DNA from: Botryllus schlosseri
Taxonomy: Eukaryota
DNA length: 64,000 nucleotides
Direction: 5' to 3'
Assembly (NCBI GenBank): GCA_051294905.1
Contig: CM119372.1
Location: 16,990,001 to 17,054,000 of the forward strand
Every line of letters begins with the position of its first letter. Position 1 is the first letter of the stretch. The notes beneath the pieces are model-generated. The model made no database searches. It was given only the letters and a program-made list of their open reading frames with translations, and was not told the origin of the DNA. Shown here piece after piece: positions 8,364-61,172 of this stretch. The position numbers were made by a program, and so were the translations under genes.

Positions 8364-8464
8364 AACTAGTAGAAAAATGGAAAGAACATTGTATATCAAC
8401 AATCGTATCACAAAATATGACGTCACCAGCATGAAATTTCGTGAATGAGAGAGCGTTCAATGTA

Positions 8465-8925: not shown

Positions 8926-9399
8926 ACTGCGAATAATTATCGAGACGACCGATTTCGAATCGTTGGGCGAGGCCGTTCACAATTCCATTTGTGTGCCTTG
9001 GAGTCGACTTTTATCAAAATACACCAACCAAAACTCTGTCAACAAAAGGAGTTCGTGTACCACCTAAAAATAGTACATTGAACGCTCTCTCATTCACGAA
9101 ATTTCATGCTGGTGACGTCATATTTTGTGATACGATTGTTGATATACAATGTTCTTTCCATTTCTCTACTAGTTGCTGACGATTACCCCTGACGAGTGTC
9201 AGCCGAAAATATTTTGGTTCATTTCAATATGAATATACTATTCAATTGTATATTGAAGTTCTGTACCTCCAAGAAGCTCTTCAAACGACCCATTGTCTGC
9301 ACATTGTGAATCATAAACATTCAAATGAAAGAAATAAGTTGACATGGTGTTATGCTCAACGTACCGCAATATCCCAACTGAAGCAAGACTGCGTGGGCA

Positions 9400-33000: not shown

Positions 33001-33759
33001 TGGAAGGCCATTGCTGGCCAGATATATTCGATACTGCAGCCCATTTTACTGATTTGGCGCACGACGCCGCCCACACACCTCGTTACGTCTTATGCCTTGC
33101 GCACAGCACCGTAACTGCCGCACCCCAAACCCCCCAATTGGGGGTGCAGAGCTCGAAGGGGGCCCAAAATTATTTCGTGAATTAGCATAAATCATGGAGT
33201 ATTTTTTGAAAATTTATGCAATTTTTTTTTTTAAATTTCGCGCTGTGCGCGAATTCAAGTAGCCATTTATCTATATTATTGGGAATTGGGCCATTACCGC
33301 GCCACGACCCACCAAGACATACAATCAAGTTTTAGGCCATATAACATGCGACTCCGAGAAGTGTGTCAGAACGATCGGCAGCGAGAAAAGCTTGGCCGAA
33401 AAGGTCTATGCCCTTATGCAGACCGAAGACTTCGTTATATAGGCTATACAAATTACATATAGGTTTAAATGTCCATAGGCGCCTAAATGACTAATTTGAA
33501 ATCGTGTGCGTCTCTTAGTTTAGAAGCCTACGTTTGGGCGATCCTATATTTTTTGATATAGCAGACTGGAAATCACGAAATAACATCATGTAACGAAGTC
33601 ATATCAACGGGTCCGCCCGCCCGAAGATGTTTATTCGTTATTTACGGGCCCTCCCGTTTTCAAGACACTTCACTCAGCTCTACCGGTAAATCTAATTACG
33701 TGAGTAGAGAGGACAATAAATTGATAGCATAATATAGTAGTATTATACACGGTAACGGG

Positions 33760-34450
33760 ACGCGCCCCAATCAACGTCGAGTATTTGATCACGTGACATC
33801 TGTTAGCCAATCAGAACGCAGAACAATGTGGGTGTGGTTTCAATACGAGAGAGGTTTTGGTTGTGCGAGAGATGGCATAGTTCCAGTCCAGTAACGCTGA
33901 GATATGTTTACGTCATGTTTGCGTAAGTTGATTACCTTCATTATGATTGCGTATTGCAGCATATTCATGATTACGTCATATGCGTAGTTGATTACTTTAG
34001 TTATTACGAGAGCGGCTTTGCTTAGTTCCAGTAATGCTCAGATATGATTACGTCATGATTGCGTCTAGTTCCAGTCCAATAACACTGAGAAATACGTTAA
34101 TATGATTGTGTAGTTGAAGCATGTTCATGATTACGTCATATGCGTAGTTGATTACTTTAGTAACGCTGAGATATGATTACGTCAATATTGCGTTGATTGC
34201 CTTTGCAGTTGAAGCAAGTGCAAGGCAATATATATAACGTATAATATTTATTACATGATTATTCGCTACACGCTGTAGATGGAATATGTCAAAGATTACT
34301 GCTAATGATATATACGTCATAATGGATCGAATTGACCTGATGAACTGGTATATTTACGTCATTATGATTGTGTAGTTGAAGCATGTTCAGTAATGATTAC
34401 GTCATATGCGATTACTTTAGTAACGCTGAGATATGATTACGTCAATATTG
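33760..34450 (+). promoter_or_regulatory. Subterminal TF-site cluster (CCAAT x2, E-box TCACGTGA, 8x TTACGTCA) in tandem repeats; mirrored at ~56560-57250
   Basis: Motifs read directly; TTACGTCA near 33908, 33971, 34047, 34131, 34177, 34354, 34397, 34437. Confidence 0.55.
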
Positions 34451-34554
34451 CGTTGATCGCCTTTGTTATTGCAGTTGAAGCAAGTGCAAGGCAATATATA
34501 ACGTGTAATATTTATTACATGATTATTCGCTGTACGCTGTAGATTGAATATGTG

Positions 34555-36040
34555 TAATAATATAAAAATTGGCAAAAATTGTGAATATCTAATCATTGTG
34601 AAAATAGCAATTATCTCATGTTGTTGATGAAAATGATCAGCTTACGTTGTTATAAGCTCCAAAGCATGATTTAAATATTTTTTAAATATTCCATTTTTTA
34701 AAATAATATTACTTTGGTTCTAACTTTGGAATAATAATTATTGATAATATTTTCATTATTCATTGAAATCATTGTAGCTTATAATGGTGTACATCTTTTA
34801 AATATTATTGTAATGATTTCAATTAATACCGAAAAAATATTATCAATAATTATTATTCCAAAGTTAGAACCAAAGTAATATTTTTTCTAAAATGGAATAT
34901 TTAAAAAATATTTAAATCATGCTTTGGAGCTTAAAACAGCGTAAGCTGATTATTTTCATCAACTACACGAGATAATTGCTAATTTCACAATGATAACATA
35001 TTCAGTAATAATATAAAAATTGGCTAATATTGTGAATATCGAATCATTGTGAAATTAGCAATTATTTCATGTTGTTGATGAAAATGATCAGCTTACGTTA
35101 TTATAAGCACCAAAGCATGATTTAAATATTTTCAAATATTCCACTTTTTAAATATTATTACTTTGGTTCTAACTTTGAAACAACAATTATTAATAATATT
35201 TTTTCATCATTCATTGAAATCATTGTAGCTTATAACGGGTGAACTGAACATCTTTTTAATAATATTGTTGCTTTGTGAATATCTTATTGATTTTTAGTTA
35301 AATTATCGATTATCTTGTATAGTTGATAAAGTAGTTGTACAAAAGACGTTCACTGTTATAATCTACATGATTTCAATGATTATTAAAAATAATTTTAATA
35401 ATAAATCTAGCAAAGTAATAATATAGAAAATTGGCTAATATTGTGAATATCTTATCATTGTGAAATTAGCAATTATCTCGTGTTGTTGATGAAAATAATC
35501 ATCTTACGTTGTATTAGGATTTATTTTACAAAACCGTAGTGTAAAGGTCTTTAGTACTTTGGAAAAAGTAGTTTCTATCTACTTTACTAAATTTGATGTA
35601 AAGTGTTCGGCGATTTAAAAAATTGGTATTTATTTTACAAAATTCCCAGTATAAACGTTTTTACAAAATCGACTTGAGTAAGTACTGTCACTAGGCAAAC
35701 CCTAGCAGAGTGTACTCTGATAAATGTAGTAGTAGTAATCGATTATCGCGAAATAAATAGATAACATACAATATGTGCGTTGCTACGATGTCTCATAAAT
35801 ACTTTCATTTAATGTATACAAGTAGGTTATTTATACGTTAAGTCAAGAATAAAAAAATTAACGCTGTCTCCATAGAAAGATATGTAAATATACTAGAACG
35901 GTTACATCTGGACGCCTGCAAGTAAGAACGTAAGCTGATCATTTTCGTCAACAACATGAGATAATTGCTAATTTCACAATTATTGGATATTCACAATATA
36001 AGCCAATTTCTATATTATTACTGAATATCTTATCATTGTG
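34555..36040. repeat. AT-rich ~200-bp unit repeated in direct and inverted orientation (local hairpins); mirrored at ~54975-56460
   Basis: Units near 34555(+), 34810-35003(-), 35005(+), 35415(+, partial), 35930-36035(-). Confidence 0.75.
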
Positions 36041-36111
36041 AGGTTTATTCAACTCTCATTAATTCAGGATTCTAGAACTACTGAAGTCTCATGGATTTAT
36101 AAAATACCGTG

Positions 36112-36190
36112 CTTTGCAAACAATGTAAAAAATAATAGAAGCGAAGTTAGCTTGGTTCCCTAGGGACATATATGCCTTTGTCAGGAATGT
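36112..36190 (+). pseudogene. Decayed IAP-type RING finger (C3HC4) fragment
   Basis: With one A removed from an A6 run: LCKQCKNNRSEVSLVP*GHICLCQEC = C-x2-C-x11-[C]-G-H-x3-C-x2-C. Confidence 0.55.
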
Positions 36191-36629
36191 TCATCCAACG
36201 ATTAGGTAATTGAATACGCGCGATTATCAATGCGTCTTGAAAAGCTAGTGGACGGAAGTGAATACCCTAGACAAGTGCGAACCTGTATATATTGCAGCAT
36301 ATTAAAGATAGCTTGTGCAATAGCCCTAAATACAACAAGATGCGGAGAGCTGATATCGCAATAGGTGCGCGGTATTCGACAATAACAAAACGCAATTGTT
36401 CGAACTTAGTGGATCCCATACCGCATTGTTAGCTCTAAATACTTAACCGTTGAAAAATCTATTCCCCAATGAGTTAGACAGCAATGCGTTAGTCGTAGCG
36501 ATTCAATCGTGTGCTCCATAATAACAAAAACACAAATGACTTAGTGGATATCACTGCTAGCTCTAAATACCAGTTGCATAGCTGAGGCTAAATGCCGTAA
36601 ATAACTACTGAGTTGGCCGAGTGGTGATT

Positions 36630-39600
36630 TACTCGCTCGGAAATCGTCACTTCTTGCACTTTACTAAAAATTTGCTGCTACTAAAATGTTAAAATGTACT
36701 TTTTTCAATGGCCTTGATGAGCAGCGTCAGTTTCATCTATATCCTATCATGCATTTTCGCACAGCAGAATGACTTATCGCATCGTAAAATAGCAAAAATA
36801 GGCTACATCGAGAATCTGCAGATTCTCACTGCGAAATATTTGAGTTTTACGAATTATCCTTCAAAGTGAGCTTACATATTGGATATCATCCAAACCCTCT
36901 CGATATCGAAATAATTGATTATTGGGAGTACTCGAGTATAGGTTTCGCCTGTCTGGGCTATACTTAATCAAGTGATTATCTGTTTAGACTAGAGTTTTCA
37001 GTTATCAGACAAATAATACCTTCAATACTTACTTTTTTTAGTCACTCGGAAATCAGCACATCATGTACTTTGGAAGAAACTTACTGGTAATAGAATGTTG
37101 AAATGTACTTTTCCATTGGGCTTGATGAGCGGGCCCAGTTTCATCTATATCCTACCATGCATTTTCGCACTTCAGAGTGACTTATCACAATGAAAAATAG
37201 CGGAGTCTCACTATACGATAATTGAGTTTTACAAATTACCCTTCGAAGTGAACCTACATGTTGGGTATTATCCAAAACCTTGTAGAATGTCGCTCCGAGC
37301 GACAAATCCTTTGAATTAAGGTGGAAGCAGCTATTTCCGACTAAGTAAAATGTTAGTATTCTAGGTCTATTTCTGCTTAATTCTGAAACTATAATGGATT
37401 TGAAGCAGTACAATATCATAAACACTTGAGAGTATTTGGTACATGTACACTAAAAACTTACTTGAGTATACTCTGAAGAAGTCAACATTTACTTGTTTAG
37501 CCGCTCGGAAATCATCACTTCTTGTACTTTACTAGAAATTCACTGCTGATGAATGAGTAATCGACTTTATTCAATATTCTCGTACTACGAAACTGAAGAA
37601 TGAATAGAGGCGTTTTCGAACTATAGAATGATATAGTCTCTACAAAATGTTTTTGATATCAAAATAACTTTTTTACATGAATGGTCACGTATCTTAATAT
37701 TCAAATAACCCAACACAGAACTAGTATTACAAGAATATCATAGTTCTTGTACCAAAGTTGTTTGTGCACAATATATGTTTAAGGTAAGTCCTACACATTC
37801 ATGATTTCGTCCGAGTTTGTATTTTAGAAAATAATATACCGACATCGCGACATCTTTCAAAAACAAAACCATGATCACTGCTTGAGAGACCTATCAATGT
37901 CATCACAGTAATCTTGTAACTTCCACAAAAGAGTAGATATGTATTTGACTTTCGTTCCACAAAGCTAACGCGCAAACAATTTACTTTACTAACGAGAAGT
38001 ATCGAGTTATCGAATGATTTTCCCTTACATCAAAACAAATAGAATGTAGATTGTAGAACTATATTTCTAACGTTCCTAACCCTTTGCACACCGCAGTTGT
38101 AAATCACACAAGCAACAAGTTTCGAGAAACGAGTTATTGAATAACGTGAAAGTGTTTTTCCAGTGTCAAGTCGTTATGTTGATTAAAGCATATAATGTAA
38201 TACCATGAAGTGAGACTTCGAAACTATCGTCAGTTCTCCATGAGCAAATATCGTGTTCTACAAGTGTTAAGATATTGTATTATGTAGCTAGTAATTAGTG
38301 CACGTAATCTCGGGATCGAACCAACGTGTGTTAACTTGCGTTATTATGTACCTAGTAATTGGTGCGAGTAATGCCGCAACTGCTGTTGTTCAATGCATTT
38401 ACCATGTTCGTAGCAAGCATCTTAATAAGGATAGACAGCGCCAAGCAAATAATGTAAGTATGTATGTATGAATGATTGGTCTAATGGTGCTTAACGACAG
38501 AAACTGGTCTTCTATTCTATATTCCGAAATAATCAAGTTGGTGGTTTACCAACACCTCGCCTCATAGAAACTTGGTAGAATCACTTATAAATCCTCACGT
38601 TCACTTAACTAAATCTAATTTGATACTCGAGTACTGAACCTTAATTTTCCAGCAGTGTGATAGACGCCGTCAGATGGTACTCAACATCGCATAATTCTGC
38701 TCGAATACAAGTAAAAGTACAGATTTTAAAGTAAGTAAGTAAGTAAGTAAGTAGGTAAAAGTGAGTAACTGGTTATGTTTGTAGACTATATCTCCACTTC
38801 TACCTTTCAGAGATGTTGAGCAGAGAAGTACATGTGTTTCTTCAAAGTAGTCAAGTAGGTTTTTGGCTACATGCACCAACTACTCAAGTGTTTATGATAT
38901 AGGCCTGTTTCGAATTCAAGTCAGTTTCAGTATTAAACAAAAATGGACCGTGAATACTAACTTTTTATAATGTGAAATTTTAAATGCATAAACGAAGAAA
39001 CGTCACTTTTACAATGCTTCGGTATTATTTCTATATTATTCCACTCTCGTTATTGGACTGCGGTGTGCCGGTGAGCTATACCTCGATGCCCGGGCTTCCG
39101 AATTAATTTTTTTCGATTTATTCTACCCTATGTAGATTTAACATAAGGAAGGTTATTTCACTCATAAAATTTGAAATACGTATTTGCTCGAGTTAAAGCC
39201 ATAACGCTTGGAGTGAAATTTTACGGGGTTTTCGTTAATATCCAACTTGGCTAATTCCGAAATATAAATTGAAAAACTCAAATATCGCATAGTAGGACTT
39301 CGCAAATTTTCGATACATTTTTTGCTATTTTTTCATGGTGATAAGTCATTCGGGACGGTGAAATGCATTATAGGAAATAGATGAAACTGGTACAATTCAT
39401 CAAGACCCCTGAAAAAATTACATTACATTTCAACATCTTATTAGCAGGTAATCGAAATATCACAAACTGTGCTAACCTTCGGAGTTGTTAAGTAAAGAAG
39501 TACTCGTACTTCTTCGGAGTACCCAAGTAGGTTTTTCGCCTACATGCACCAAATACTCTCAAATCCTTATGATGTTGGAGTGCTTCAACTTCATGATAGT

Positions 39601-40110
39601 TATAGTATTAAGCAGAAATATACCTGGAGTACTAACGTTTTACTTACTCGGAAATGACTACTTCTATCTTATTTTAAAGGATTCCCCGCTCGTCGCGAAA
39701 TTTTATTAGGTTTTGAATAATATCCAACATGTAGGTTCACTTTGAAGGGTACTTCGTAAAACTCAAATATTGCACAGTGAGAGTTCGCTAATTCTCGATG
39801 TATTTTTTGGTATTTTTATTGCGGTAAGTCATTCTGCAGCGCGAAAATGCCTCGTAGGATATAGATGAAACTGACAACGCTCACCAAGACCACTGGACCA
39901 CTGAAAAAGTACGTTTCAATATTTTAGTAGCAGTAAAGTCCTAGTAAAGTACCAGAAGTGATGATTTCCGAGTTAGTTAAAAAGTAAGTATTGTAGGTAT
40001 AGTTTGCTCGAAAACCGAAAACTCTGAAATAGAAGTAGATGCAGTGTAAAAAAGTTAATCACTTGATTAAGTATAGCACAAGCAGACCAAACCTATACAT
40101 GAGTACTTCA
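36630..40110. repeat. Diverged internal repeats inside the palindrome arm
   Basis: Unit CTCGGAAATC...CAGTTTCATCTATATCC...TCCAAAACC near 36636, 37044 and 37504 (partial) and inverted near 39240-39480 and 39710-39975; also a ~300-bp direct pair near 38277 and 40724. Confidence 0.7.
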
Positions 40111-41363
40111 AAATGTACAAGTACTTCGCTATGGACTCCCTCCACGTAAAATGTGACTAGGTTTTAGACTACTTTATCGGTACTTGACAGTTTCAGTTTT
40201 AGATAAGATTTGGAATAAAAAACTAGCTCATTCACCCACTTGGAAATCTCTTCTTTAACCTGTACTTGAGCGTAGCAAGTAAATCTCATTTAATATTAAT
40301 TCTACACGTACACTTGACCCTATTTTATGACTTACATAATTACTTTTCCATATATTTTAAGTCAAGTCTGTCAAATAGCAGTATATGTTACGATGAGCTT
40401 ATATTCGTTCTGTTTGATCATCTTGACTAATGATATTCACTCGGCGAGCTCTCCAGTGATAGCTTTGGGACTTGGAACAGTGTTATATGACATCATAGCG
40501 ATACGAGGTTACGACCGTTTATAATTAGCTACCTTACGACACCAAATTTCGTTAGTTCATCTCCACCTTCAAATATCGTGTTATACAAATATTGTGTATA
40601 CGGAACAAATACATATATGGCTATGTTGTTGCAATCTGCAAAAAAGTACCTCCCTCAGTAACCAATTTCTGGTAGGCTATGCATACAAATGAGGACAGTT
40701 ACATCAACGAGTCGTAACTTGTTGTATTATGTAGCTAGTAATTTGTGCAAGTAAGTCCGCAACTACTGTTCAAGTCCTTTTCCGCGTTTTTTGTCAAGCA
40801 TCATAGTAAGGACAGACAGTCCCAATCAGCTAATGTAAGTGTGTATGTATGTATGAGGGGTCTTATGGTCGTTGACGAATGAAGTTGGTCGTCTATTCTA
40901 TTCCGAAATAATCAAGTTAGTGCTTTTTAACAGGACCTCACCTCATAGAAACTTCAGTAGAATAACTTATAACTCCTCACGTTTACTCAACTAAATCTAA
41001 TTTGATAATCAAGTACTGAATCTTAATTTTCAAACGAGTTCAAATTTTACTCTAACTTATGAGATTACATATAATAACTTTTCACGATGCAATGTATTTT
41101 ACAGCATGAGCCAAGTGATTTCGTAATTAACACAAGATAATTAAATGAATTTCTAGAGTATTACAAGATATTCGTGTCATCCTCCTTCGTATATCATAAA
41201 AGAATATCTACTGCAGTCGATTTGTAATTATTTGCACTGTGTTTGATTAACTCAATCATGTCGCAGTGTTTTTTATTAACGAAACTCTTTTACAGCATAA
41301 ACCAAATAATTTCATAATAAACACACTAATTTCATAATAAACATAAAAAAATATTTCCGCGCC

Positions 41364-41405
41364 CTCCTAAACCTAATTCCTCCTAACCCTATAACCTAAT
41401 CCTGA
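41364..41405. other. Palindrome centre: 42-bp telomere-like spacer
   Basis: CTCCTAAACCTAATTCCTCCTAACCCTATAACCTAATCCTGA between ATATTTCCGCGCC and GGCGCGGAAATAT. Confidence 0.85.
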
Positions 41406-44400
41406 GGCGCGGAAATATTTTTTATGTTTATTATGAAATTAGTGTGTTTATTATGAAATTATTTGGTTTATGCTGTAAAAGAGTTTCGTTAATAAAAAAC
41501 ACTGCGACATGATTGAGTTAATCAAACACAGTGCAAATAATTACAAATCGACTGCAGTAGATATTCTTTTATGATATACGAAGGAGGATGACACGAATAT
41601 CTTGTAATACTCTAGAAATTCATTTAATTATCTTGTGTTAATTACGAAATCACTTGGCTCATGCTGTAAAATACATTGCATCGTGAAAAGTTATTATATG
41701 TAATCTCATAAGTTAGAGTAAAATTTGAACTCGTTTGAAAATTAAGATTCAGTACTTGATTATCAAATTAGATTTAGTTGAGTAAACGTGAGGAGTTATA
41801 AGTTATTCTACTGAAGTTTCTATGAGGTGAGGTCCTGTTAAAAAGCACTAACTTGATTATTTCGGAATAGAATAGACGACCAACTTCATTCGTCAACGAC
41901 CATAAGACCCCTCATACATACATACACACTTACATTAGCTGATTGGGACTGTCTGTCCTTACTATGATGCTTGACAAAAAACGCGGAAAAGGACTTGAAC
42001 AGTAGTTGCGGACTTACTTGCACAAATTACTAGCTACATAATACAACAAGTTACGACTCGTTGATGTAACTGTCCTCATTTGTATGCATAGCCTACCAGA
42101 AATTGGTTACTGAGGGAGGTACTTTTTTGCAGATTGCAACAACATAGCCATATATGTATTTGTTCCGTATACACAATATTTGTATAACACGATATTTGAA
42201 GGTGGAGATGAACTAACGAAATTTGGTGTCGTAAGGTAGCTAATTATAAACGGTCGTAACCTCGTATCGCTATGATGTCATATAACACTGTTCCAAGTCC
42301 CAAAGCTATCACTGGAGAGCTCGCCGAGTGAATATCATTAGTCAAGATGATCAAACAGAACGAATATAAGCTCATCGTAACATATACTGCTATTTGACAG
42401 ACTTGACTTAAAATATATGGAAAAGTAATTATGTAAGTCATAAAATAGGGTCAAGTGTACGTGTAGAATTAATATTAAATGAGATTTACTTGCTACGCTC
42501 AAGTACAGGTTAAAGAAGAGATTTCCAAGTGGGTGAATGAGCTAGTTTTTTATTCCAAATCTTATCTAAAACTGAAACTGTCAAGTACCGATAAAGTAGT
42601 CTAAAACCTAGTCACATTTTACGTGGAGGGAGTCCATAGCGAAGTACTTGTACATTTTGAAGTACTCATGTATAGGTTTGGTCTGCTTGTGCTATACTTA
42701 ATCAAGTGATTAACTTTTTTACACTGCATCTACTTCTATTTCAGAGTTTTCGGTTTTCGAGCAAACTATACCTACAATACTTACTTTTTAACTAACTCGG
42801 AAATCATCACTTCTGGTACTTTACTAGGACTTTACTGCTACTAAAATATTGAAACGTACTTTTTCAGTGGTCCAGTGGTCTTGGTGAGCGTTGTCAGTTT
42901 CATCTATATCCTACGAGGCATTTTCGCGCTGCAGAATGACTTACCGCAATAAAAATACCAAAAAATACATCGAGAATTAGCGAACTCTCACTGTGCAATA
43001 TTTGAGTTTTACGAAGTACCCTTCAAAGTGAACCTACATGTTGGATATTATTCAAAACCTAATAAAATTTCGCGACGAGCGGGGAATCCTTTAAAATAAG
43101 ATAGAAGTAGTCATTTCCGAGTAAGTAAAACGTTAGTACTCCAGGTATATTTCTGCTTAATACTATAACTATCATGAAGTTGAAGCACTCCAACATCATA
43201 AGGATTTGAGAGTATTTGGTGCATGTAGGCGAAAAACCTACTTGGGTACTCCGAAGAAGTACGAGTACTTCTTTACTTAACAACTCCGAAGGTTAGCACA
43301 GTTTGTGATATTTCGATTACCTGCTAATAAGATGTTGAAATGTAATGTAATTTTTTCAGGGGTCTTGATGAATTGTACCAGTTTCATCTATTTCCTATAA
43401 TGCATTTCACCGTCCCGAATGACTTATCACCATGAAAAAATAGCAAAAAATGTATCGAAAATTTGCGAAGTCCTACTATGCGATATTTGAGTTTTTCAAT
43501 TTATATTTCGGAATTAGCCAAGTTGGATATTAACGAAAACCCCGTAAAATTTCACTCCAAGCGTTATGGCTTTAACTCGAGCAAATACGTATTTCAAATT
43601 TTATGAGTGAAATAACCTTCCTTATGTTAAATCTACATAGGGTAGAATAAATCGAAAAAAATTAATTCGGAAGCCCGGGCATCGAGGTATAGCTCACCGG
43701 CACACCGCAGTCCAATAACGAGAGTGGAATAATATAGAAATAATACCGAAGCATTGTAAAAGTGACGTTTCTTCGTTTATGCATTTAAAATTTCACATTA
43801 TAAAAAGTTAGTATTCACGGTCCATTTTTGTTTAATACTGAAACTGACTTGAATTCGAAACAGGCCTATATCATAAACACTTGAGTAGTTGGTGCATGTA
43901 GCCAAAAACCTACTTGACTACTTTGAAGAAACACATGTACTTCTCTGCTCAACATCTCTGAAAGGTAGAAGTGGAGATATAGTCTACAAACATAACCAGT
44001 TACTCACTTTTACCTACTTACTTACTTACTTACTTACTTTAAAATCTGTACTTTTACTTGTATTCGAGCAGAATTATGCGATGTTGAGTACCATCTGACG
44101 GCGTCTATTCACACTGCTGGAAAATTAAGGTTCAGTACTCGAGTATCAAATTAGATTTAGTTAAGTGAACGTGAGGATTTATAAGTGATTCTACCAAGTT
44201 TCTATGAGGCGAGGTGTTGGTAAACCACCAACTTGATTATTTCGGAATATAGAATAGAAGACCAGTTTCTGTCGTTAAGCACCATTAGACCAATCATTCA
44301 TACATACAGTACTTACATTATTTGCTTGGCGCTGTCTATCCTTATTAAGATGCTTGCTACGAACATGGTAAATGCATTGAACAACAGCAGTTGCGGCATT

Positions 44401-45695
44401 ACTCGCACCAATTACATAGGTACATAATAACGCAAGTTAACACACGTTGGTTCGATCCCGAGTTACGTGCACTAATTACTAGCTACATAATACAATATCT
44501 TAACACTTGTAGAACACGATATTTGCTCATGGAGAACTGACGATAGTTTCGAAGTCTCACTTCATGTATTACATTATATGCTTTAAACAACATAACGACT
44601 TGACACTGGAAAAACACTTTCACGTTATTCAATAACTCGTTTCTCGAAAACTTGTTGCTTGTGTGATTTACAACTGCGGTGTGCAAAGGGTTAGGAACGT
44701 TAGAAATATAGTTCTACAATCTACATTCTATTTGTTTTGATGTAAGGGAACAATCATTCGATAACTCGATACTTCTCGTTAGTAAAGTAAAATTGTTTGC
44801 GCGTTAAGCTTTGTGGAACGAAAGTCAAATACATATCTCTACTCTTTTGTGGAAGTTACAAGATTACTGTGATGACATTGATAGGTCTCTCAAGCAGTGA
44901 TCATGGTTTTGTTTTTGAAAGATGTCGCTCGATGTCGGTATAATTATTTTCTAAAATACAAACTCGGACGAAATCATATGAATGTGTAGGACTTACCTAA
45001 AACATATATTGTGCACAAACAACTTTGGTACCAAGAACTATGATATTCTTGTAAATACTAGTTCTGTGTTGGGTTATTTGAAATTAAGATACGTGACCAT
45101 TCATGTAAAAAAGTTATTTTGATATCAAAACAACATTTTGTAGAGACTATATCATTCTATAGTTCGAAAACGCCTCTCTACTTCATTCTTCAGTTTTCGT
45201 AGTACGAGAATATTGAATAAAGTCGAATTACTCATTCATCAGCAGTGAATTTCTAGTAAAGTTACAAGAAAGTGATGATTTCCGAGCGGCCTAAACAAGT
45301 AAATGTTGACTATTCAGAGTATACTCAAGTAAAGTTTTTAGTGTACATGTACTCCAAATACTCTCAAGTGTTTATGATATTGTACTGCTTCAAATCCATT
45401 ATAGTTTCAGAATTAAGCAGAAATAGACCTAGAATACTAACATTTTACTTAGTCGGAAATAGCTGCTTCCCCTTAATTCATAAGGATTTGTCGCTCGGAG
45501 CGACATTCATACAAGGTTTTGGATAATACCCAACATGTAGGTTCACTTCAGAAGGGTAATTTGTAAAAACTCAATTATCGTATAGTGAGACTCCGCTATT
45601 TTTCATTGTGATAAGTCACTCTGAAGTGCGAAAATGCATGGTAGGATATAGATGAAACTGGGCCCGCTCATCAAGCCCAATGGAAAAAGTACATA

Positions 45696-45795
45696 NNNNN
45701 NNNNNNNNNNNNNNNNNNNNNNNNNNNNNNNNNNNNNNNNNNNNNNNNNNNNNNNNNNNNNNNNNNNNNNNNNNNNNNNNNNNNNNNNNNNNNNN
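45696..45795. other. Assembly gap (100 N)
   Basis: Run of N; sequence after the gap restarts at the equivalent of 37550. Confidence 0.99.
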
Positions 45796-48700
45796 TGAAT
45801 GAGTAATCGACTTTATTCAATATTCTCGTACTACGAAACTGAAGAATGAATAGAGGCGTTTTCGAACTATAGAATGATATAGTCTCTACAAAATGTTTTT
45901 GATATCAAAATAACTTTTTTACATGAATGGTCACGTATCTTAATATTCAAATAACCCAACACAGAACTAGTATTACAAGAATATCATAGTTCTTGTACCA
46001 AAGTTGTTTGTGCACAATATATGTTTAAGGTAAGTCCTACACATTCATGATTTCGTCCGAGTTTGTATTTTAGAAAATAATATACCGACATCGCGACATC
46101 TTTCAAAAACAAAACCATGATCACTGCTTGAGAGACCTATCAATGTCATCACAGTAATCTTGTAACTTCCACAAAAGAGTAGATATGTATTTGACTTTCG
46201 TTCCACAAAGCTAACGCGCAAACAATTTACTTTACTAACGAGAAGTATCGAGTTATCGAATGATTTTCCCTTACATCAAAACAAATAGAATGTAGATTGT
46301 AGAACTATATTTCTAACGTTCCTAACCCTTTGCACACCGCAGTTGTAAATCACACAAGCAACAAGTTTCGAGAAACGAGTTATTGAATAACGTGAAAGTG
46401 TTTTTCCAGTGTCAAGTCGTTATGTTGATTAAAGCATATAATGTAATACCATGAAGTGAGACTTCGAAACTATCGTCAGTTCTCCATGAGCAAATATCGT
46501 GTTCTACAAGTGTTAAGATATTGTATTATGTAGCTAGTAATTAGTGCACGTAATCTCGGGATCGAACCAACGTGTGTTAACTTGCGTTATTATGTACCTA
46601 GTAATTGGTGCGAGTAATGCCGCAACTGCTGTTGTTCAATGCATTTACCATGTTCGTAGCAAGCATCTTAATAAGGATAGACAGCGCCAAGCAAATAATG
46701 TAAGTATGTATGTATGAATGATTGGTCTAATGGTGCTTAACGACAGAAACTGGTCTTCTATTCTATATTCCGAAATAATCAAGTTGGTGGTTTACCAACA
46801 CCTCGCCTCATAGAAACTTGGTAGAATCACTTATAAATCCTCACGTTCACTTAACTAAATCTAATTTGATACTCGAGTACTGAACCTTAATTTTCCAGCA
46901 GTGTGATAGACGCCGTCAGATGGTACTCAACATCGCATAATTCTGCTCGAATACAAGTAAAAGTACAGATTTTAAAGTAAGTAAGTAAGTAAGTAAGTAG
47001 GTAAAAGTGAGTAACTGGTTATGTTTGTAGACTATATCTCCACTTCTACCTTTCAGAGATGTTGAGCAGAGAAGTACATGTGTTTCTTCAAAGTAGTCAA
47101 GTAGGTTTTTGGCTACATGCACCAACTACTCAAGTGTTTATGATATAGGCCTGTTTCGAATTCAAGTCAGTTTCAGTATTAAACAAAAATGGACCGTGAA
47201 TACTAACTTTTATAATGTGAAATTTTAAATGCATAAACGAAGAAACGTCACTTTTACAATGCTTCGGTATTATTTCTATATTATTCCACTCTCGTTATTG
47301 GACTGCGGTGTGCCGGTGAGCTATACCTCGATGCCCGGGCTTCCGAATTAATTTTTTTCGATTTATTCTACCCTATGTAGATTTAACATAAGGAAGGTTA
47401 TTTCACTCATAAAATTTGAAATACGTATTTGCTCGAGTTAAAGCCATAACGCTTGGAGTGAAATTTTACGGGGTTTTCGTTAATATCCAACTTGGCTAAT
47501 TCCGAAATATAAATTGAAAAACTCAAATATCGCATAGTAGGACTTCGCAAATTTTCGATACATTTTTTGCTATTTTTTCATGGTGATAAGTCATTCGGGA
47601 CGGTGAAATGCATTATAGGAAATAGATGAAACTGGTACAATTCATCAAGACCCCTGAAAAAATTACATTACATTTCAACATCTTATTAGCAGGTAATCGA
47701 AATATCACAAACTGTGCTAACCTTCGGAGTTGTTAAGTAAAGAAGTACTCGTACTTCTTCGGAGTACCCAAGTAGGTTTTTCGCCTACATGCACCAAATA
47801 CTCTCAAATCCTTATGATGTTGGAGTGCTTCAACTTCATGATAGTTATAGTATTAAGCAGAAATATACCTGGAGTACTAACGTTTTACTTACTCGGAAAT
47901 GACTACTTCTATCTTATTTTAAAGGATTCCCCGCTCGTCGCGAAATTTTATTAGGTTTTGAATAATATCCAACATGTAGGTTCACTTTGAAGGGTACTTC
48001 GTAAAACTCAAATATTGCACAGTGAGAGTTCGCTAATTCTCGATGTATTTTTTGGTATTTTTATTGCGGTAAGTCATTCTGCAGCGCGAAAATGCCTCGT
48101 AGGATATAGATGAAACTGACAACGCTCACCAAGACCACTGGACCACTGAAAAAGTACGTTTCAATATTTTAGTAGCAGTAAAGTCCTAGTAAAGTACCAG
48201 AAGTGATGATTTCCGAGTTAGTTAAAAAGTAAGTATTGTAGGTATAGTTTGCTCGAAAACCGAAAACTCTGAAATAGAAGTAGATGCAGTGTAAAAAAGT
48301 TAATCACTTGATTAAGTATAGCACAAGCAGACCAAACCTATACATGAGTACTTCAAAATGTACAAGTACTTCGCTATGGACTCCCTCCACGTAAAATGTG
48401 ACTAGGTTTTAGACTACTTTATCGGTACTTGACAGTTTCAGTTTTAGATAAGATTTGGAATAAAAAACTAGCTCATTCACCCACTTGGAAATCTCTTCTT
48501 TAACCTGTACTTGAGCGTAGCAAGTAAATCTCATTTAATATTAATTCTACACGTACACTTGACCCTATTTTATGACTTACATAATTACTTTTCCATATAT
48601 TTTAAGTCAAGTCTGTCAAATAGCAGTATATGTTACGATGAGCTTATATTCGTTCTGTTTGATCATCTTGACTAATGATATTCACTCGGCGAGCTCTCCA

Positions 48701-49608
48701 GTGATAGCTTTGGGACTTGGAACAGTGTTATATGACATCATAGCGATACGAGGTTACGACCGTTTATAATTAGCTACCTTACGACACCAAATTTCGTTAG
48801 TTCATCTCCACCTTCAAATATCGTGTTATACAAATATTGTGTATACGGAACAAATACATATATGGCTATGTTGTTGCAATCTGCAAAAAAGTACCTCCCT
48901 CAGTAACCAATTTCTGGTAGGCTATGCATACAAATGAGGACAGTTACATCAACGAGTCGTAACTTGTTGTATTATGTAGCTAGTAATTTGTGCAAGTAAG
49001 TCCGCAACTACTGTTCAAGTCCTTTTCCGCGTTTTTTGTCAAGCATCATAGTAAGGACAGACAGTCCCAATCAGCTAATGTAAGTGTGTATGTATGTATG
49101 AGGGGTCTTATGGTCGTTGACGAATGAAGTTGGTCGTCTATTCTATTCCGAAATAATCAAGTTAGTGCTTTTTAACAGGACCTCACCTCATAGAAACTTC
49201 AGTAGAATAACTTATAACTCCTCACGTTTACTCAACTAAATCTAATTTGATAATCAAGTACTGAATCTTAATTTTCAAACGAGTTCAAATTTTACTCTAA
49301 CTTATGAGATTACATATAATAACTTTTCACGATGCAATGTATTTTACAGCATGAGCCAAGTGATTTCGTAATTAACACAAGATAATTAAATGAATTTCTA
49401 GAGTATTACAAGATATTCGTGTCATCCTCCTTCGTATATCATAAAAGAATATCTACTGCAGTCGATTTGTAATTATTTGCACTGTGTTTGATTAACTCAA
49501 TCATGTCGCAGTGTTTTTTATTAACGAAACTCTTTTACAGCATAAACCAAATAATTTCATAATAAACACACTAATTTCATAATAAACATAAAAAAATATT
49601 TCCGCGCC

Positions 49609-49650
49609 CTCCTAAACCTAATTCCTCCTAACCCTATAACCTAATCCTGA
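49609..49650. other. Second copy of the palindrome centre (same orientation, offset 8245 bp)
   Basis: Identical spacer and stems to 41364-41405. Confidence 0.85.
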
Positions 49651-52600
49651 GGCGCGGAAATATTTTTTATGTTTATTATGAAATTAGTGTGTTTATTATG
49701 AAATTATTTGGTTTATGCTGTAAAAGAGTTTCGTTAATAAAAAACACTGCGACATGATTGAGTTAATCAAACACAGTGCAAATAATTACAAATCGACTGC
49801 AGTAGATATTCTTTTATGATATACGAAGGAGGATGACACGAATATCTTGTAATACTCTAGAAATTCATTTAATTATCTTGTGTTAATTACGAAATCACTT
49901 GGCTCATGCTGTAAAATACATTGCATCGTGAAAAGTTATTATATGTAATCTCATAAGTTAGAGTAAAATTTGAACTCGTTTGAAAATTAAGATTCAGTAC
50001 TTGATTATCAAATTAGATTTAGTTGAGTAAACGTGAGGAGTTATAAGTTATTCTACTGAAGTTTCTATGAGGTGAGGTCCTGTTAAAAAGCACTAACTTG
50101 ATTATTTCGGAATAGAATAGACGACCAACTTCATTCGTCAACGACCATAAGACCCCTCATACATACATACACACTTACATTAGCTGATTGGGACTGTCTG
50201 TCCTTACTATGATGCTTGACAAAAAACGCGGAAAAGGACTTGAACAGTAGTTGCGGACTTACTTGCACAAATTACTAGCTACATAATACAACAAGTTACG
50301 ACTCGTTGATGTAACTGTCCTCATTTGTATGCATAGCCTACCAGAAATTGGTTACTGAGGGAGGTACTTTTTTGCAGATTGCAACAACATAGCCATATAT
50401 GTATTTGTTCCGTATACACAATATTTGTATAACACGATATTTGAAGGTGGAGATGAACTAACGAAATTTGGTGTCGTAAGGTAGCTAATTATAAACGGTC
50501 GTAACCTCGTATCGCTATGATGTCATATAACACTGTTCCAAGTCCCAAAGCTATCACTGGAGAGCTCGCCGAGTGAATATCATTAGTCAAGATGATCAAA
50601 CAGAACGAATATAAGCTCATCGTAACATATACTGCTATTTGACAGACTTGACTTAAAATATATGGAAAAGTAATTATGTAAGTCATAAAATAGGGTCAAG
50701 TGTACGTGTAGAATTAATATTAAATGAGATTTACTTGCTACGCTCAAGTACAGGTTAAAGAAGAGATTTCCAAGTGGGTGAATGAGCTAGTTTTTTATTC
50801 CAAATCTTATCTAAAACTGAAACTGTCAAGTACCGATAAAGTAGTCTAAAACCTAGTCACATTTTACGTGGAGGGAGTCCATAGCGAAGTACTTGTACAT
50901 TTTGAAGTACTCATGTATAGGTTTGGTCTGCTTGTGCTATACTTAATCAAGTGATTAACTTTTTTACACTGCATCTACTTCTATTTCAGAGTTTTCGGTT
51001 TTCGAGCAAACTATACCTACAATACTTACTTTTTAACTAACTCGGAAATCATCACTTCTGGTACTTTACTAGGACTTTACTGCTACTAAAATATTGAAAC
51101 GTACTTTTTCAGTGGTCCAGTGGTCTTGGTGAGCGTTGTCAGTTTCATCTATATCCTACGAGGCATTTTCGCGCTGCAGAATGACTTACCGCAATAAAAA
51201 TACCAAAAAATACATCGAGAATTAGCGAACTCTCACTGTGCAATATTTGAGTTTTACGAAGTACCCTTCAAAGTGAACCTACATGTTGGATATTATTCAA
51301 AACCTAATAAAATTTCGCGACGAGCGGGGAATCCTTTAAAATAAGATAGAAGTAGTCATTTCCGAGTAAGTAAAACGTTAGTACTCCAGGTATATTTCTG
51401 CTTAATACTATAACTATCATGAAGTTGAAGCACTCCAACATCATAAGGATTTGAGAGTATTTGGTGCATGTAGGCGAAAAACCTACTTGGGTACTCCGAA
51501 GAAGTACGAGTACTTCTTTACTTAACAACTCCGAAGGTTAGCACAGTTTGTGATATTTCGATTACCTGCTAATAAGATGTTGAAATGTAATGTAATTTTT
51601 TCAGGGGTCTTGATGAATTGTACCAGTTTCATCTATTTCCTATAATGCATTTCACCGTCCCGAATGACTTATCACCATGAAAAAATAGCAAAAAATGTAT
51701 CGAAAATTTGCGAAGTCCTACTATGCGATATTTGAGTTTTTCAATTTATATTTCGGAATTAGCCAAGTTGGATATTAACGAAAACCCCGTAAAATTTCAC
51801 TCCAAGCGTTATGGCTTTAACTCGAGCAAATACGTATTTCAAATTTTATGAGTGAAATAACCTTCCTTATGTTAAATCTACATAGGGTAGAATAAATCGA
51901 AAAAAATTAATTCGGAAGCCCGGGCATCGAGGTATAGCTCACCGGCACACCGCAGTCCAATAACGAGAGTGGAATAATATAGAAATAATACCGAAGCATT
52001 GTAAAAGTGACGTTTCTTCGTTTATGCATTTAAAATTTCACATTATAAAAAGTTAGTATTCACGGTCCATTTTTGTTTAATACTGAAACTGACTTGAATT
52101 CGAAACAGGCCTATATCATAAACACTTGAGTAGTTGGTGCATGTAGCCAAAAACCTACTTGACTACTTTGAAGAAACACATGTACTTCTCTGCTCAACAT
52201 CTCTGAAAGGTAGAAGTGGAGATATAGTCTACAAACATAACCAGTTACTCACTTTTACCTACTTACTTACTTACTTACTTACTTTAAAATCTGTACTTTT
52301 ACTTGTATTCGAGCAGAATTATGCGATGTTGAGTACCATCTGACGGCGTCTATCACACTGCTGGAAAATTAAGGTTCAGTACTCGAGTATCAAATTAGAT
52401 TTAGTTAAGTGAACGTGAGGATTTATAAGTGATTCTACCAAGTTTCTATGAGGCGAGGTGTTGGTAAACCACCAACTTGATTATTTCGGAATATAGAATA
52501 GAAGACCAGTTTCTGTCGTTAAGCACCATTAGACCAATCATTCATACATACATACTTACATTATTTGCTTGGCGCTGTCTATCCTTATTAAGATGCTTGC

Positions 52601-54822
52601 TACGAACATGGTAAATGCATTGAACAACAGCAGTTGCGGCATTACTCGCACCAATTACTAGGTACATAATAACGCAAGTTAACACACGTTGGTTCGATCC
52701 CGAGATTACGTGCACTAATTACTAGCTACATAATACAATATCTTAACACTTGTAGAACACGATATTTGCTCATGGAGAACTGACGATAGTTTCGAAGTCT
52801 CACTTCATGGTATTACATTATATGCTTTAATCAACATAACGACTTGACACTGGAAAAACACTTTCACGTTATTCAATAACTCGTTTCTCGAAACTTGTTG
52901 CTTGTGTGATTTACAACTGCGGTGTGCAAAGGGTTAGGAACGTTAGAAATATAGTTCTACAATCTACATTCTATTTGTTTTGATGTAAGGGAAAATCATT
53001 CGATAACTCGATACTTCTCGTTAGTAAAGTAAATTGTTTGCGCGTTAGCTTTGTGGAACGAAAGTCAAATACATATCTACTCTTTTGTGGAAGTTACAAG
53101 ATTACTGTGATGACATTGATAGGTCTCTCAAGCAGTGATCATGGTTTTGTTTTTGAAAGATGTCGCGATGTCGGTATATTATTTTCTAAAATACAAACTC
53201 GGACGAAATCATGAATGTGTAGGACTTACCTTAAACATATATTGTGCACAAACAACTTTGGTACAAGAACTATGATATTCTTGTAATACTAGTTCTGTGT
53301 TGGGTTATTTGAATATTAAGATACGTGACCATTCATGTAAAAAAGTTATTTTGATATCAAAAACATTTTGTAGAGACTATATCATTCTATAGTTCGAAAA
53401 CGCCTCTATTCATTCTTCAGTTTCGTAGTACGAGAATATTGAATAAAGTCGATTACTCATTCATCAGCAGTGAATTTCTAGTAAAGTACAAGAAGTGATG
53501 ATTTCCGAGCGGCTAAACAAGTAAATGTTGACTTCTTCAGAGTATACTCAAGTAAGTTTTTAGTGTACATGTACCAAATACTCTCAAGTGTTTATGATAT
53601 TGTACTGCTTCAAATCCATTATAGTTTCAGAATTAAGCAGAAATAGACCTAGAATACTAACATTTTACTTAGTCGGAAATAGCTGCTTCCACCTTAATTC
53701 AAAGGATTTGTCGCTCGGAGCGACATTCTACAAGGTTTTGGATAATACCCAACATGTAGGTTCACTTCGAAGGGTAATTTGTAAAACTCAATTATCGTAT
53801 AGTGAGACTCCGCTATTTTTCATTGTGATAAGTCACTCTGAAGTGCGAAAATGCATGGTAGGATATAGATGAAACTGGGCCCGCTCATCAAGCCCAATGG
53901 AAAAGTACATTTCAACATTCTATTACCAGTAAGTTTCTTCCAAAGTACATGATGTGCTGATTTCCGAGTGACTAAAAAAAGTAAGTATTGAAGGTATTAT
54001 TTGTCTGATAACTGAAAACTCTAGTCTAAACAGATAATCACTTGATTAAGTATAGCCCAGACAGGCGAAACCTATACTCGAGTACTCCCAATAATCAATT
54101 ATTTCGATATCGAGAGGGTTTGGATGATATCCAATATGTAAGCTCACTTTGAAGGATAATTCGTAAAACTCAAATATTTCGCAGTGAGAATCTGCAGATT
54201 CTCGATGTAGCCTATTTTTGCTATTTTACGATGCGATAAGTCATTCTGCTGTGCGAAAATGCATGATAGGATATAGATGAAACTGACGCTGCTCATCAAG
54301 GCCATTGAAAAAAGTACATTTTAACATTTTAGTAGCAGCAAATTTTTAGTAAAGTGCAAGAAGTGACGATTTCCGAGCGAGTAAATCACCACTCGGCCAA
54401 CTCAGTAGTTATTTACGGCATTTAGCCTCAGCTATGCAACTGGTATTTAGAGCTAGCAGTGATATCCACTAAGTCATTTGTGTTTTTGTTATTATGGAGC
54501 ACACGATTGAATCGCTACGACTAACGCATTGCTGTCTAACTCATTGGGGAATAGATTTTTCAACGGTTAAGTATTTAGAGCTAACAATGCGGTATGGGAT
54601 CCACTAAGTTCGAACAATTGCGTTTTGTTATTGTCGAATACCGCGCACCTATTGCGATATCAGCTCTCCGCATCTTGTTGTATTTAGGGCTATTGCACAA
54701 GCTATCTTTAATATGCTGCAATATATACAGGTTCGCACTTGTCTAGGGTATTCACTTCCGTCCACTAGCTTTTCAAGACGCATTGATAATCGCGCGTATT
54801 CAATTACCTAATCGTTGGATGA

Positions 54823-54901
54823 ACATTCCTGACAAAGGCATATATGTCCCTAGGGAACCAAGCTAACTTCGCTTCTATTATTTTTTACATTGTTTGCAAA
54901 G
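54823..54901 (-). pseudogene. Mirror copy of the RING finger remnant
   Basis: Reverse complement of 36112-36190 with the same lesions. Confidence 0.55.
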
Positions 54902-57900
54902 CACGGTATTTTATAAATCCATGAGACTTCAGTAGTTCTAGAATCCTGAATTAATGAGAGTTGAATAAACCTCACAATGATAAGATATTCAGTAATAATA
55001 TAGAAATTGGCTTATATTGTGAATATCCAATAATTGTGAAATTAGCAATTATCTCATGTTGTTGACGAAAATGATCAGCTTACGTTCTTACTTGCAGGCG
55101 TCCAGATGTAACCGTTCTAGTATATTTACATATCTTTCTATGGAGACAGCGTTAATTTTTTTATTCTTGACTTAACGTATAAATAACCTACTTGTATACA
55201 TTAAATGAAAGTATTTATGAGACATCGTAGCAACGCACATATTGTATGTTATCTATTTATTTCGCGATAATCGATTACTACTACTACATTTATCAGAGTA
55301 CACTCTGCTAGGGTTTGCCTAGTGACAGTACTTACTCAAGTCGATTTTGTAAAAACGTTTATACTGGGAATTTTGTAAAATAAATACCAATTTTTTAAAT
55401 CGCCGAACACTTTACATCAAATTTAGTAAAGTAGATAGAAACTACTTTTTCCAAAGTACTAAAGACCTTTACACTACGGTTTTGTAAAATAAATCCTAAT
55501 ACAACGTAAGATGATTATTTTCATCAACAACACGAGATAATTGCTAATTTCACAATGATAAGATATTCACAATATTAGCCAATTTTCTATATTATTACTT
55601 TGCTAGATTTATTATTAAAATTATTTTTAATAATCATTGAAATCATGTAGATTATAACAGTGAACGTGTTTTGTACAACTACTTTATCAACTATACAAGA
55701 TAATCGATAATTTAACTAAAAATCAATAAGATATTCACAAAGCAACAATATTATTAAAAAGATGTTCAGTTCACCCGTTATAAGCTACAATGATTTCAAT
55801 GAATGATGAAAAAATATTATTAATAATTGTTGTTTCAAAGTTAGAACCAAAGTAATAATATTTAAAAAGTGGAATATTTGAAAATATTTAAATCATGCTT
55901 TGGTGCTTATAATAACGTAAGCTGATCATTTTCATCAACAACATGAAATAATTGCTAATTTCACAATGATTCGATATTCACAATATTAGCCATTTTTTAT
56001 ATTATTACTGAATATGTTATCATTGTGAAATTAGCAATTATCTCGTGTAGTTGATGAAAATAATCAGCTTACGCTGTTATAAGCTCCAAAGCATGATTTA
56101 AATATTTTTTAAATATTCCATTTCAGAAAAAATATTACTTTGGTTCTAACTTTGGAATAATAATTATTGATAATATTTTTTCGGTATTAATTGAAATCAT
56201 TACAATAATATTTAAAAGATGTACACCATTATAAGCTACAATGATTTCAATGAATAATGAAAATATTATCAATAATTATTATTCCAAAGTTAGAACCAAA
56301 GTAATATTATTTTAAAAAATGGAATATTTAAAAAATATTTAAATCATGCTTTGGAGCTTATAACAACGTAAGCTGATCATTTTCATCAACAACATGAGAT
56401 AATTGCTATTTTCACAATGATTAGATATTCACAATTTTTGCCAATTTTTATATTATTACACATATTCAATCTACAGCGTACAGCGAATAATCATGTAATA
56501 AATATTACACGTTATATATTGCCTTGCACTTGCTTCAACTGCAATAACAAAGGCGATCAACGCAATATTGACGTAATCATATCTCAGCGTTACTAAAGTA
56601 ATCGCATATGACGTAATCATTACTGAACATGCTTCAACTACACAATCATAATGACGTAAATATACCAGTTCATCAGGTCAATTCGATCCATTATGACGTA
56701 TATATCATTAGCAGTAATCTTTGACATATTCCATCTACAGCGTGTAGCGAATAATCATGTAATAAATATTATACGTTATATATATTGCCTTGCACTTGCT
56801 TCAACTGCAAAGGCAATCAACGCAATATTGACGTAATCATATCTCAGCGTTACTAAAGTAATCAACTACGCATATGACGTAATCATGAACATGCTTCAAC
56901 TACACAATCATATTAACGTATTTCTCAGTGTTATTGGACTGGAACTAGACGCAATCATGACGTAATCATATCTGAGCATTACTGGAACTAAGCAAAGCCG
57001 CTCTCGTAATAACTAAAGTAATCAACTACGCATATGACGTAATCATGAATATGCTGCAATACGCAATCATAATGAAGGTAATCAACTTACGCAAACATGA
57101 CGTAAACATATCTCAGCGTTACTGGACTGGAACTATGCCATCTCTCGCACAACCAAAACCTCTCTCGTATTGAAACCACACCCACATTGTTCTGCGTTCT
57201 GATTGGCTAACAGATGTCACGTGATCAAATACTCGACGTTGATTGGGGCGCGTCCCGTTACCGTGTATTATACTACTTAATATATATGCAATCGCCCATC
57301 TGATTGACCGATTTTATCATAAATTATCGAAAATTTTCGCGCCTCGCGCTGGCTCACAATACAGTACAGATAATTTCGTGACAAACGCGACCAACGTGAT
57401 CGGGGGGGGGTCGTGTTATCACCCTATGGGAGCCCAATACCCACGTATTTTGGGGCCTGACGAGGTGCTGTTTCGTTCCTGCCAACGAATATACCCCCGA
57501 AGATGTTTAATTGTTATTGAGTGGTCCTACCTTTTCAAACACACCTCACTCAGCTCTACCGGCAAATCTGATTACGTGAGCAGAGAAGAAAAAAAATTGA
57601 TAACATTATATGCAATTCCTGATCATACTAAACCAGGGCCGGCCAACCCGTGGCCCGCGGGCCACATGTGGCCCGCGAGAAGGTTTTGAGTGGCCCGCGT
57701 GGTGATTTCCGAAATTAGTAACATAATACAAAATGGATTGCACCGATTGTGAACTTTGTGAAAATGAAAGAACGCCAAATGTATCAGATTGAGTCTAATT
57801 CAGGGGTTCTCACAGGGTGGGCCATGGCCCACCCGTGGGCCACAGGAGCATTTGAGGTGGGTCGCAAAGCTATTTAGAAAATTTTAGAATTGATGTTTAG

Positions 57901-60524: not shown

Positions 60525-61172
60525 TCAAGTGGCCGATCCCGTTTTCTGAGTTTTCTCAACAGCAGCTATCACATGCGAATCAAATAATTCAGCTCTGATA
60601 GGCATTTCTAGGGAGTAGAACGGATTTTTCAAAGCATAGTCCGCATATATACGATACAGTTTATTCAGCAGAGAGTCTACACCTAGCTGCTTGTTGTCAG
60701 CAATGACAACAAACTTCACTCCTGTTAGAGTTTGCTTGCAATGCAGCGTGAAAGCATCTGTCTCCAATTTCTGTATTCCTGAACTCGTGCTGTTTGGTGA
60801 CAACTGCACGCTGATCGCGTACAATGAGTGGAACATACTGGCGAGCATTATTTTTTGGTTCGATGATAGTTTACGTCGTCCAAACTTTATACTGAGCGGG
60901 AATTCTTTTTCGTTTTTTAGGATGTCCATGGCTGATACCCCATCGATTCTGCCTCCCTGAACAGGTTTGCCATTGATTGCGAGGATAATATGACCAACTC
61001 TGATTCCATCCCTTTGGCCAAATATAACGGTGATACCTTCTGACTGCTCTTCCAACTTCAGCTCTAATGGATAGCTGAGCGTCTTCTCCATTTCAAAGTT
61101 TGGTTTGTAATGGTCATACTGAAAGATCAGTCCTCCTGCTTTGTTGATGACAAAAATTCCGAAGACTGTCAT
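60525..61172 (-). CDS. TRAPPC4: Trafficking protein particle complex subunit 4 (synbindin/Trs23), single-exon CDS, 215 aa
   Basis: [14 protein letters not shown]-terminus, PDZ-like insert ([14 protein letters not shown]), [52 protein letters not shown]. Confidence 0.97.

Follow-up and report, generated by a model that had tools for sequence, protein, structure and literature searches.

How did a telomere-like sequence come to lie at the axis of a 15-kb palindrome, and does it matter there? The question is raised by a 64,000-nucleotide stretch of the Botryllus schlosseri genome (the window; assembly GCA_051294905.1, contig CM119372.1, positions 16,990,001 to 17,054,000, numbered here from 1). 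An original prediction, made from the letters alone, had placed a telomere-like spacer at 41351..41418 and proposed that the broken end of a linear element received telomerase-like or untemplated additions and then folded back. Our analysis leads us, with moderate confidence, to see the spacer as the hairpin loop that a non-autonomous snap-back element with Maverick-type ends has inherited.

A Maverick-ended palindrome with a hairpin loop

Read most simply, the palindrome is a single element with a calculated length of 15,297 nt, two 7615-nt arms and a loop at the axis. The left arm (33736..41350, plus strand; 33.6% GC) is a mosaic of internal direct and inverted repeats, and the right arm (49663..57277, minus strand) differs from it by five substitutions. 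The outer limits are at 33736 and 57277; the palindrome starts with AGTAGT (33736..33741) and ends with ACTACT. Both flanks carry TAATAT (33730..33735 and 57278..57283), a 6-bp target-site duplication that would match by chance with a probability of ~3e-4 given the flank composition. According to passages of PMC8097293, the end signature of Mavericks is (AGT)2//(ACT)2, alternatively (AG)3//(CT)3, plus a perfect 6-bp duplication. The element thus resembles Mavericks/Polintons in its ends, its terminal inverted repeats, its target duplication and its size of ~15 kb, as these are given in parts of PMC8097293 and PMC6431247. Unlike them, it has no polymerase, integrase or capsid frame, its inverted repeat makes up 99.7% of its length, and its centre is a telomere-like loop. 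The longest stop-to-stop frame in the arm is 102 aa. Ten arm-overlapping frames, from a list of 19 of at least 55 aa, contained no Pfam family, and the arm had no match in Rfam. Frames for a protein-primed PolB, an integrase, a protease, an ATPase and a capsid protein, which define an autonomous Maverick, are absent from the element. It has the cis ends of a Maverick and no recognisable genes, and therefore it is not an autonomous Maverick.

The loop at the true axis is 42 nt long (41364..41405, plus strand; 1 G, 16 C, 13 A and 12 T). It is closed by an 18-bp inner stem in which 41346..41363 pairs with 41406..41423, the left side ending in CCGCGCC (41357-41363) and the right side beginning with GGCGCGG (41406-41412); the predicted GC-rich closing stem is thus present. 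In the minimum-energy DNA fold the whole loop is unpaired, and the centroid structure adds a short bulged pairing at its base. A repeat finder gives the spacer as 67 nt, since ungapped pairing halts at a length difference between an A7 run (41345..41351) and the facing T6 run (41418..41423), a run length that contig comparison shows to be polymorphic among family copies. Since the 18-bp stem runs on inside the 67-nt spacer, the true loop is 42 nt; the predicted spacer does contain this loop, but its coordinates also take in 13 bp of the inner stem on each side. Nor is the spacer the only non-palindromic part of the element, as had been claimed: the A7/T6 difference and the five arm substitutions are asymmetric as well. 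A second spacer, identical to the first, is found at 49596-49662.

The five substitutions (33744, 34889, 34934, 35020 and 35345) all fall in the outer 1.6 kb of the 7.6-kb arm, a clustering with a post hoc probability of ~4e-4 under a uniform distribution. Arm-to-arm copying that is strongest near the axis could produce it, and so could polishing that homogenises unanchored parts. All-GC 7-mers such as the block CCGCGCC occupy just four sites in the whole arm. One 7-mer, CGCGCCC, occurs at 33761, 25 nt inside the terminus, and again in the same orientation in the axis stem at 41358, with no other site in the arm. These two sites may be bound by a shared protein. The GC stem may also be just the first sequence copied at fold-back, in which case it need not predate that event.

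The second spacer copy belongs to a second axis that straddles an assembly gap. To the left, a partial right arm (41418..45695) runs to the end of the left contig; it is exact to 44108 and noisy from there on, with 34 extra, 5 missing and 3 substituted letters in the contig tail relative to the left arm. A 100-N scaffold gap follows (45696..45795). The right contig takes up the sequence again from the point equivalent to 37550, with a direct repeat of 37550-41350 (45796..49595, one difference), a probable assembly overlap. The second 67-nt spacer lies next to it and is oriented like the first, and the second loop copy (49609..49650) is identical, co-oriented and offset by 8245. The two contigs overlap directly by ~8.1 kb at 99.5% identity. 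The second axis is most likely an assembly overlap in which one element was entered from both flanks, and the two loop copies probably represent one locus. Two real axes, forming a ~30-kb head-to-tail dimer whose middle is hidden in the gap, seem quite unlikely to us. The gap carries no stated size, which leaves room for such a dimer, but the contigs overlap directly, the errors in the left contig tail have the pattern of an unpolished read end, and the spacers are identical and co-oriented. A fold-back dimer is excluded: its second loop would be inverted.

The entire palindrome could also be a sequencing chimera produced by read fold-back, given that the arms are near-identical and that the assembly breaks within them. 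We consider this extremely improbable. Each outer end passes into unique flanking sequence, where a perfect 6-bp duplication is found, five sites distinguish the outer arms, and, what largely refutes a chimera, the loop recurs with variants in independent runs (see below). Assemblies break at such elements and duplicate them, which inflates assembly length and copy counts.

Telomere likeness and inheritance of the loop

The spacer had been described as nearly G-free and built of CCTAA/TAACCC units. The loop has a single G and exceeds shuffled sequences in its likeness to such units, but it is degenerate. Its local alignment score against (CCCTAA)n is 20, reached by 0/2000 mononucleotide and 2/2000 dinucleotide shuffles; against (CCTAA)n it is 17, reached by 0/2000 and 27/2000, respectively. 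By dinucleotide shuffles the loop therefore fits CCCTAA better than CCTAA, and non-telomeric units fit better still (CCTAAT 23, CCTAAA 22, ACCTAA 22). Against the TTAGGG repeat, 32 of 41 alignment columns match, so that the loop is ~22% off a perfect repeat, and the longest exact telomere tract is 10 nt. An array of CCTAAN-like units is the most fitting description of the loop. When the window was scanned for the CCCTAA score in 42-nt windows every 7 nt on both strands, the sole 42-mers within 2 points of the loop were three, all on the loop or its duplicate. Weaker telomere-like tracts occur near 61850, 21394 and 17079, all outside palindromes.

Other copies of the axis were found in contigs from 4 of 16 listed public runs aligned to 40700-41432: X1 (804 contigs), which may be the assembly's own sample, X11 (70), X12 (11), which has a different organism label, and X5 (66), a marine metagenome. 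The comparison listed 40 of 100 substitutions, 12 of 38 indels and 24 of 135 loose ends. A check of whether copies share one axis had been suggested, and these copies do, with X1, X11 and X5 covering the same loop in full and X12 covering part of it. The loop substitutions among those listed are 41380 C>T (nine X1 contigs, plus X5 and X12), 41392 T>C (eight X1 contigs, plus X11 and X5), 41394 A>T (X11) and 41398 A>G (X5), and small deletions are listed at 41399 and 41405. One 118-nt X1 contig spans stem, loop and stem with 12 differences. Because the loop occurs with variants across many contigs and independent runs, the axis is inherited by a family and is not private to this locus. A flip of spacer orientation between copies had been suggested as a sign of hairpin replication. 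This comparison tells little, as the loop orientation of a symmetric element reports insertion orientation only; strand-changing joints were not among the seven joints listed, and contigs cannot reveal loop flipping.

These observations bear directly on the proposed addition of telomere-like repeats. De novo addition by telomerase would leave a near-perfect tandem telomere repeat at a junction private to one locus; the loop is ~22% off such a repeat, and its variants recur across runs. The ~22% distance predates the related copies, which in X5 show ~6-7% differences, and an addition at this locus is thus not upheld. An addition during the founding event of the family is a separate matter. Telomerase or polymerase theta would have added TTAGGG-like repeats to a broken ancestral end, which folded back, and the tract would then have decayed. 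Such an event would account for the closer fit to CCCTAA (2 versus 27 of the 2000 dinucleotide shuffles), for a tract that fills the loop almost exactly and for the imperfect pairing that the minus-strand 3' side of the tract can form with the stem base in the centroid structure. We nevertheless consider it unlikely. With 32 of 41 columns matching and a 10-nt exact tract, ~22% decay would have to precede a family whose copies differ by ~6%, and the perfect repeat is restored by none of the four listed loop substitutions. In human cases, moreover, passages of PMC7467729, PMC10766186 and PMC3907307 have new telomeres capping the far end while the spacer pre-exists. The loop shares TTAGGG-like hexamers and a strong strand bias with de novo telomere additions and interstitial telomeric sequences. 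Unlike both of these it is degenerate, 42 nt long, common to many copies and placed at an internal axis.

Searches beyond these runs gave negative results. The terminal motif had 0 matches in viral contigs, and the loop pattern had 0 in prokaryote genomes. The stem-loop pattern matched at least 120 loci in metagenomes; none of the 120 listed was arm-like by BLAST, and one of them had three telomere-like words, in an unrelated self-paired context. A stem-plus-CCTAA pattern matched 51 loci in a viral collection, 0/51 with arm similarity or an extended stem.

A probable fold-back origin of the loop

In our proposal, the element behaves as a Maverick derivative of the snap-back kind that depends on a helper. 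An ancestral linear element would have been copied by protein-primed strand displacement with enzymes from a helper Maverick; according to parts of the Maverick/Polinton papers (PMC8097293, PMC6431247), a protein-primed polymerase replicates Polintons and a retrovirus-like integrase inserts them. The ancestral copy may have broken or stalled just beyond a CCTAA-rich, degenerate tract that its own sequence already contained. Its free 3' end would have folded back, paired over 2-5 nt and copied the arm, with the tract left behind as the 42-nt loop. In this way an element that had lost one end could regain an end by folding back and copying the other. Each displaced strand would afterwards close on itself as a hairpin duplex whose end is complete and double-stranded, favouring amplification and keeping the arms alike, and the helper's integrase would insert the duplex form. 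The length of the loop may aid survival against hairpin-cutting nucleases. The telomere-like letters would have drifted since, with no function needed. The palindrome with its 7615-nt arms, the (AGT)2//(ACT)2 ends, the 6-bp duplication, the lack of recognisable genes and a loop common to other copies are direct observations on which we base the proposal; from them we infer dependence on a helper, a single founding event, snap-back replication and protection through loop length.

The fold-back itself had been anticipated by the original prediction, and the junction agrees with it. Passages of the fold-back papers (PMC7467729, PMC10766186, PMC3907307) give a median loop of 36 nt in yeast with intact Mre11 and Sae2, report that yeast loops of at least 15 nt appear to escape Mre11-Sae2, describe a model of origin-dependent inverted-repeat amplification (ODIRA) with ~5-nt repeats 40-80 nt apart, and describe human fold-backs with 2-8 bp of inverted microhomology around pre-existing spacers. 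Passages of PMC7397707 describe template switching caused by hairpins or structured DNA in adeno-associated virus (AAV) vectors. Here the spacer between the long inverted arms measures tens of bases, 42 nt against the 36-nt median of yeast. A loop of this length, with a few bulged base pairs, fits this literature and is therefore what ordinary fold-back leaves. The short imperfect pairing at the base likewise matches fold-back and template-switch junctions. The idea that the spacer stabilises the palindrome can be kept in part: loops of the length reported to escape cleavage would help, but through their length and not their sequence.

The element thus resembles fold-back inversions and ODIRA junctions (PMC7467729, PMC10766186, PMC3907307, in the passages used) in its unpaired spacer of tens of bases, its long inverted arms and its imperfect base pairing. 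Unlike those one-off chromosome rearrangements, its junction is carried by a mobile family and is common to the copies. It also resembles AAV genomes made by hairpin-induced template switching, which an excerpt of PMC7397707 describes as helper-dependent, self-complementary and bearing two identical outer ends. Unlike them, it sits in a host chromosome between the copies of a target duplication, the form in which it is known here. Snap-back defective viral genomes and palindromic linear plasmids of Streptomyces are likewise self-complementary, helper-dependent derivatives with two identical outer ends. The hairpin telomeres of N15, Borrelia and poxviruses are similar in that their duplex form is palindromic around the hairpin site, as stated in part of PMC13685816. 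Unlike them, the axis has a long unpaired loop, not a short one, and bears no sign of resolution; among the arm frames there is none for a telomere resolvase, which would go with a short loop. By these findings the element belongs neither to de novo telomere additions nor to resolvase hairpin telomeres nor to autonomous Mavericks.

Several observations weigh against a snap-back Maverick derivative. A non-palindromic parent with the loop was not found in the sequences examined (the 64-kb window and the contigs of four runs), and a helper Maverick is absent from the window. X1 has a summed depth of ~4000-8000 on the arm close by and of 374-794 on the loop, 5-10 times lower where a factor of 2 is expected; library bias may account for this drop, or many arms may have other axes. 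The arm/loop depth ratio is ~1-2 in X11 and varies widely in X5. The proposal also does not explain why, of all 42-mers sampled in the window, the most telomere-like one should lie at the axis. A polymerase stall at a G-quadruplex is weakly supported by G4Hunter, whose mean on the loop is 0.79, with a best 25-mer of 1.0, compared with 1.44 for TTAGGG repeats.

Short palindromic transposons with a TTAGG-like loop are probably present in animal repeat libraries, and one of them could have entered the parent and supplied a ready fold-back site. The GC block, one of just four all-GC 7-mer sites in the arm, would fit such a captured hairpin. So would two X12 contigs, one joining at 41336 after 254 unrelated letters and the other at 41346 after 10. 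These joins are single contigs of depth ~2 that may flank an insertion, however, and a third X12 contig departs at 41320. No X1 or X11 loose end falls within 41032-41432 among the 24 of 135 listed, and 1% of X1 contigs continue in unlike sequence. The 64-kb window has no second telomere-like hairpin outside the element, and a literature search turned up no such transposon family. We regard a captured hairpin as rather improbable.

Whatever its origin, the loop might have been selected as a telomere mimic. In a snapped-back extrachromosomal form, its single-stranded G-rich loop would bind host POT1/shelterin and hide the hairpin end from Mre11 and ATR. A candidate site is the nonamer TAGGGTTAG on the minus strand (41383..41391), the minimal human POT1 site as named in a reference title within PMC3241663, which has no other occurrence in the window besides the duplicate axis. 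The four listed substitutions and both listed loop deletions lie outside it. Passages of PMC13685816 describe hairpin ends as targets of Mre11-Rad50 and a phage, N15, that protects its own. Against these points, the nonamer is present in 35-74% of simulated degenerate arrays, and four changes would miss it by chance with p ~0.38. The full 10-nt high-affinity site, TTAGGGTTAG, is absent, next to the loop there is no double-stranded telomeric tract, which shelterin prefers according to a passage of PMC3241663, and protection would extend to one of the two strands only. The loop also diverges as fast as the arm: in X5, at most 3/42 loop letters differ, compared with 17/297 for one contig of the arm, which gives no indication that the loop is under extra constraint. 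We find selection for mimicry quite doubtful. The same holds for a helper-dependent Maverick satellite that would replicate as an extrachromosomal rod, protein-primed at one end and with a hairpin at the other, the latter under a putative telomere-mimic cap recruiting POT1 against Mre11/ATR; such a satellite has, in our judgement, a small chance of being real. The telomere-like sequence is real, but as a detail of the family it is probably incidental. If the loop did bind POT1, a mobile element would be using the host's telomere protection for an internal hairpin, a situation we did not find described in the literature.

Non-autonomous Polintons, possibly palindromic, are present in Repbase, and Kapitonov and Jurka reportedly described non-autonomous forms in 2006. 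The titles and abstract openings covered by our literature search describe no telomere-like loop in a Maverick-ended palindrome; Repbase-type accounts of palindromic forms may exist. The repeats of the Pannagram preprint are, according to passages of it, coding 2-kb repeats, which do not have the palindrome structure of the element. Multi-kilobase palindromes with short spacers are normally unstable, according to passages of PMC7467729, PMC10766186 and PMC3907307. A family that keeps a long palindrome through many insertions is a natural test of what matters, be it the length of the loop, its sequence or the replication route. For the founding event of the family and for its subfamily structure, the axis serves as the best marker.

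Other features of the arms and the window

Near the outer end of the left arm, imperfect repeats with eight TTACGTCA motifs occupy 33887..34553. A promoter-like cluster at 33789-34445 comprises one TCACGTGA, one GCCAATCA and the eight TTACGTCA, a motif with five occurrences in ~40 kb outside the element. We presume these motifs to be of E-box, CCAAT and ATF/CREB-like types. Near the axis, a 38-nt direct repeat is found at 41097-41134 and 41288-41325. Duplications occur in other copies, as does one skip of 168 nt (41178 to 41347) with the stem-loop retained, each in a single contig. A ~107-nt module (40925-41031) has loose ends on both sides in several X1 and X5 contigs and therefore also occurs in other contexts. 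A ~117-nt direct repeat is present on both flanks of the element (33619-33735 and ~57495-57611), with the element placed where the left copy ends.

Two other palindromic sequences lie in the window, neither with a telomere-like centre: a repeat at 8293-9245 with ~318-nt arms at 98% identity and a 318-nt spacer, and a 442-nt element at 2750-3191 with 85% identity. On the minus strand, 60528-61193 holds an uninterrupted 222-aa frame assigned by a Pfam scan to the Sybindin family with a PDZ-like insert, which we take to be probably the host TRAPPC4.

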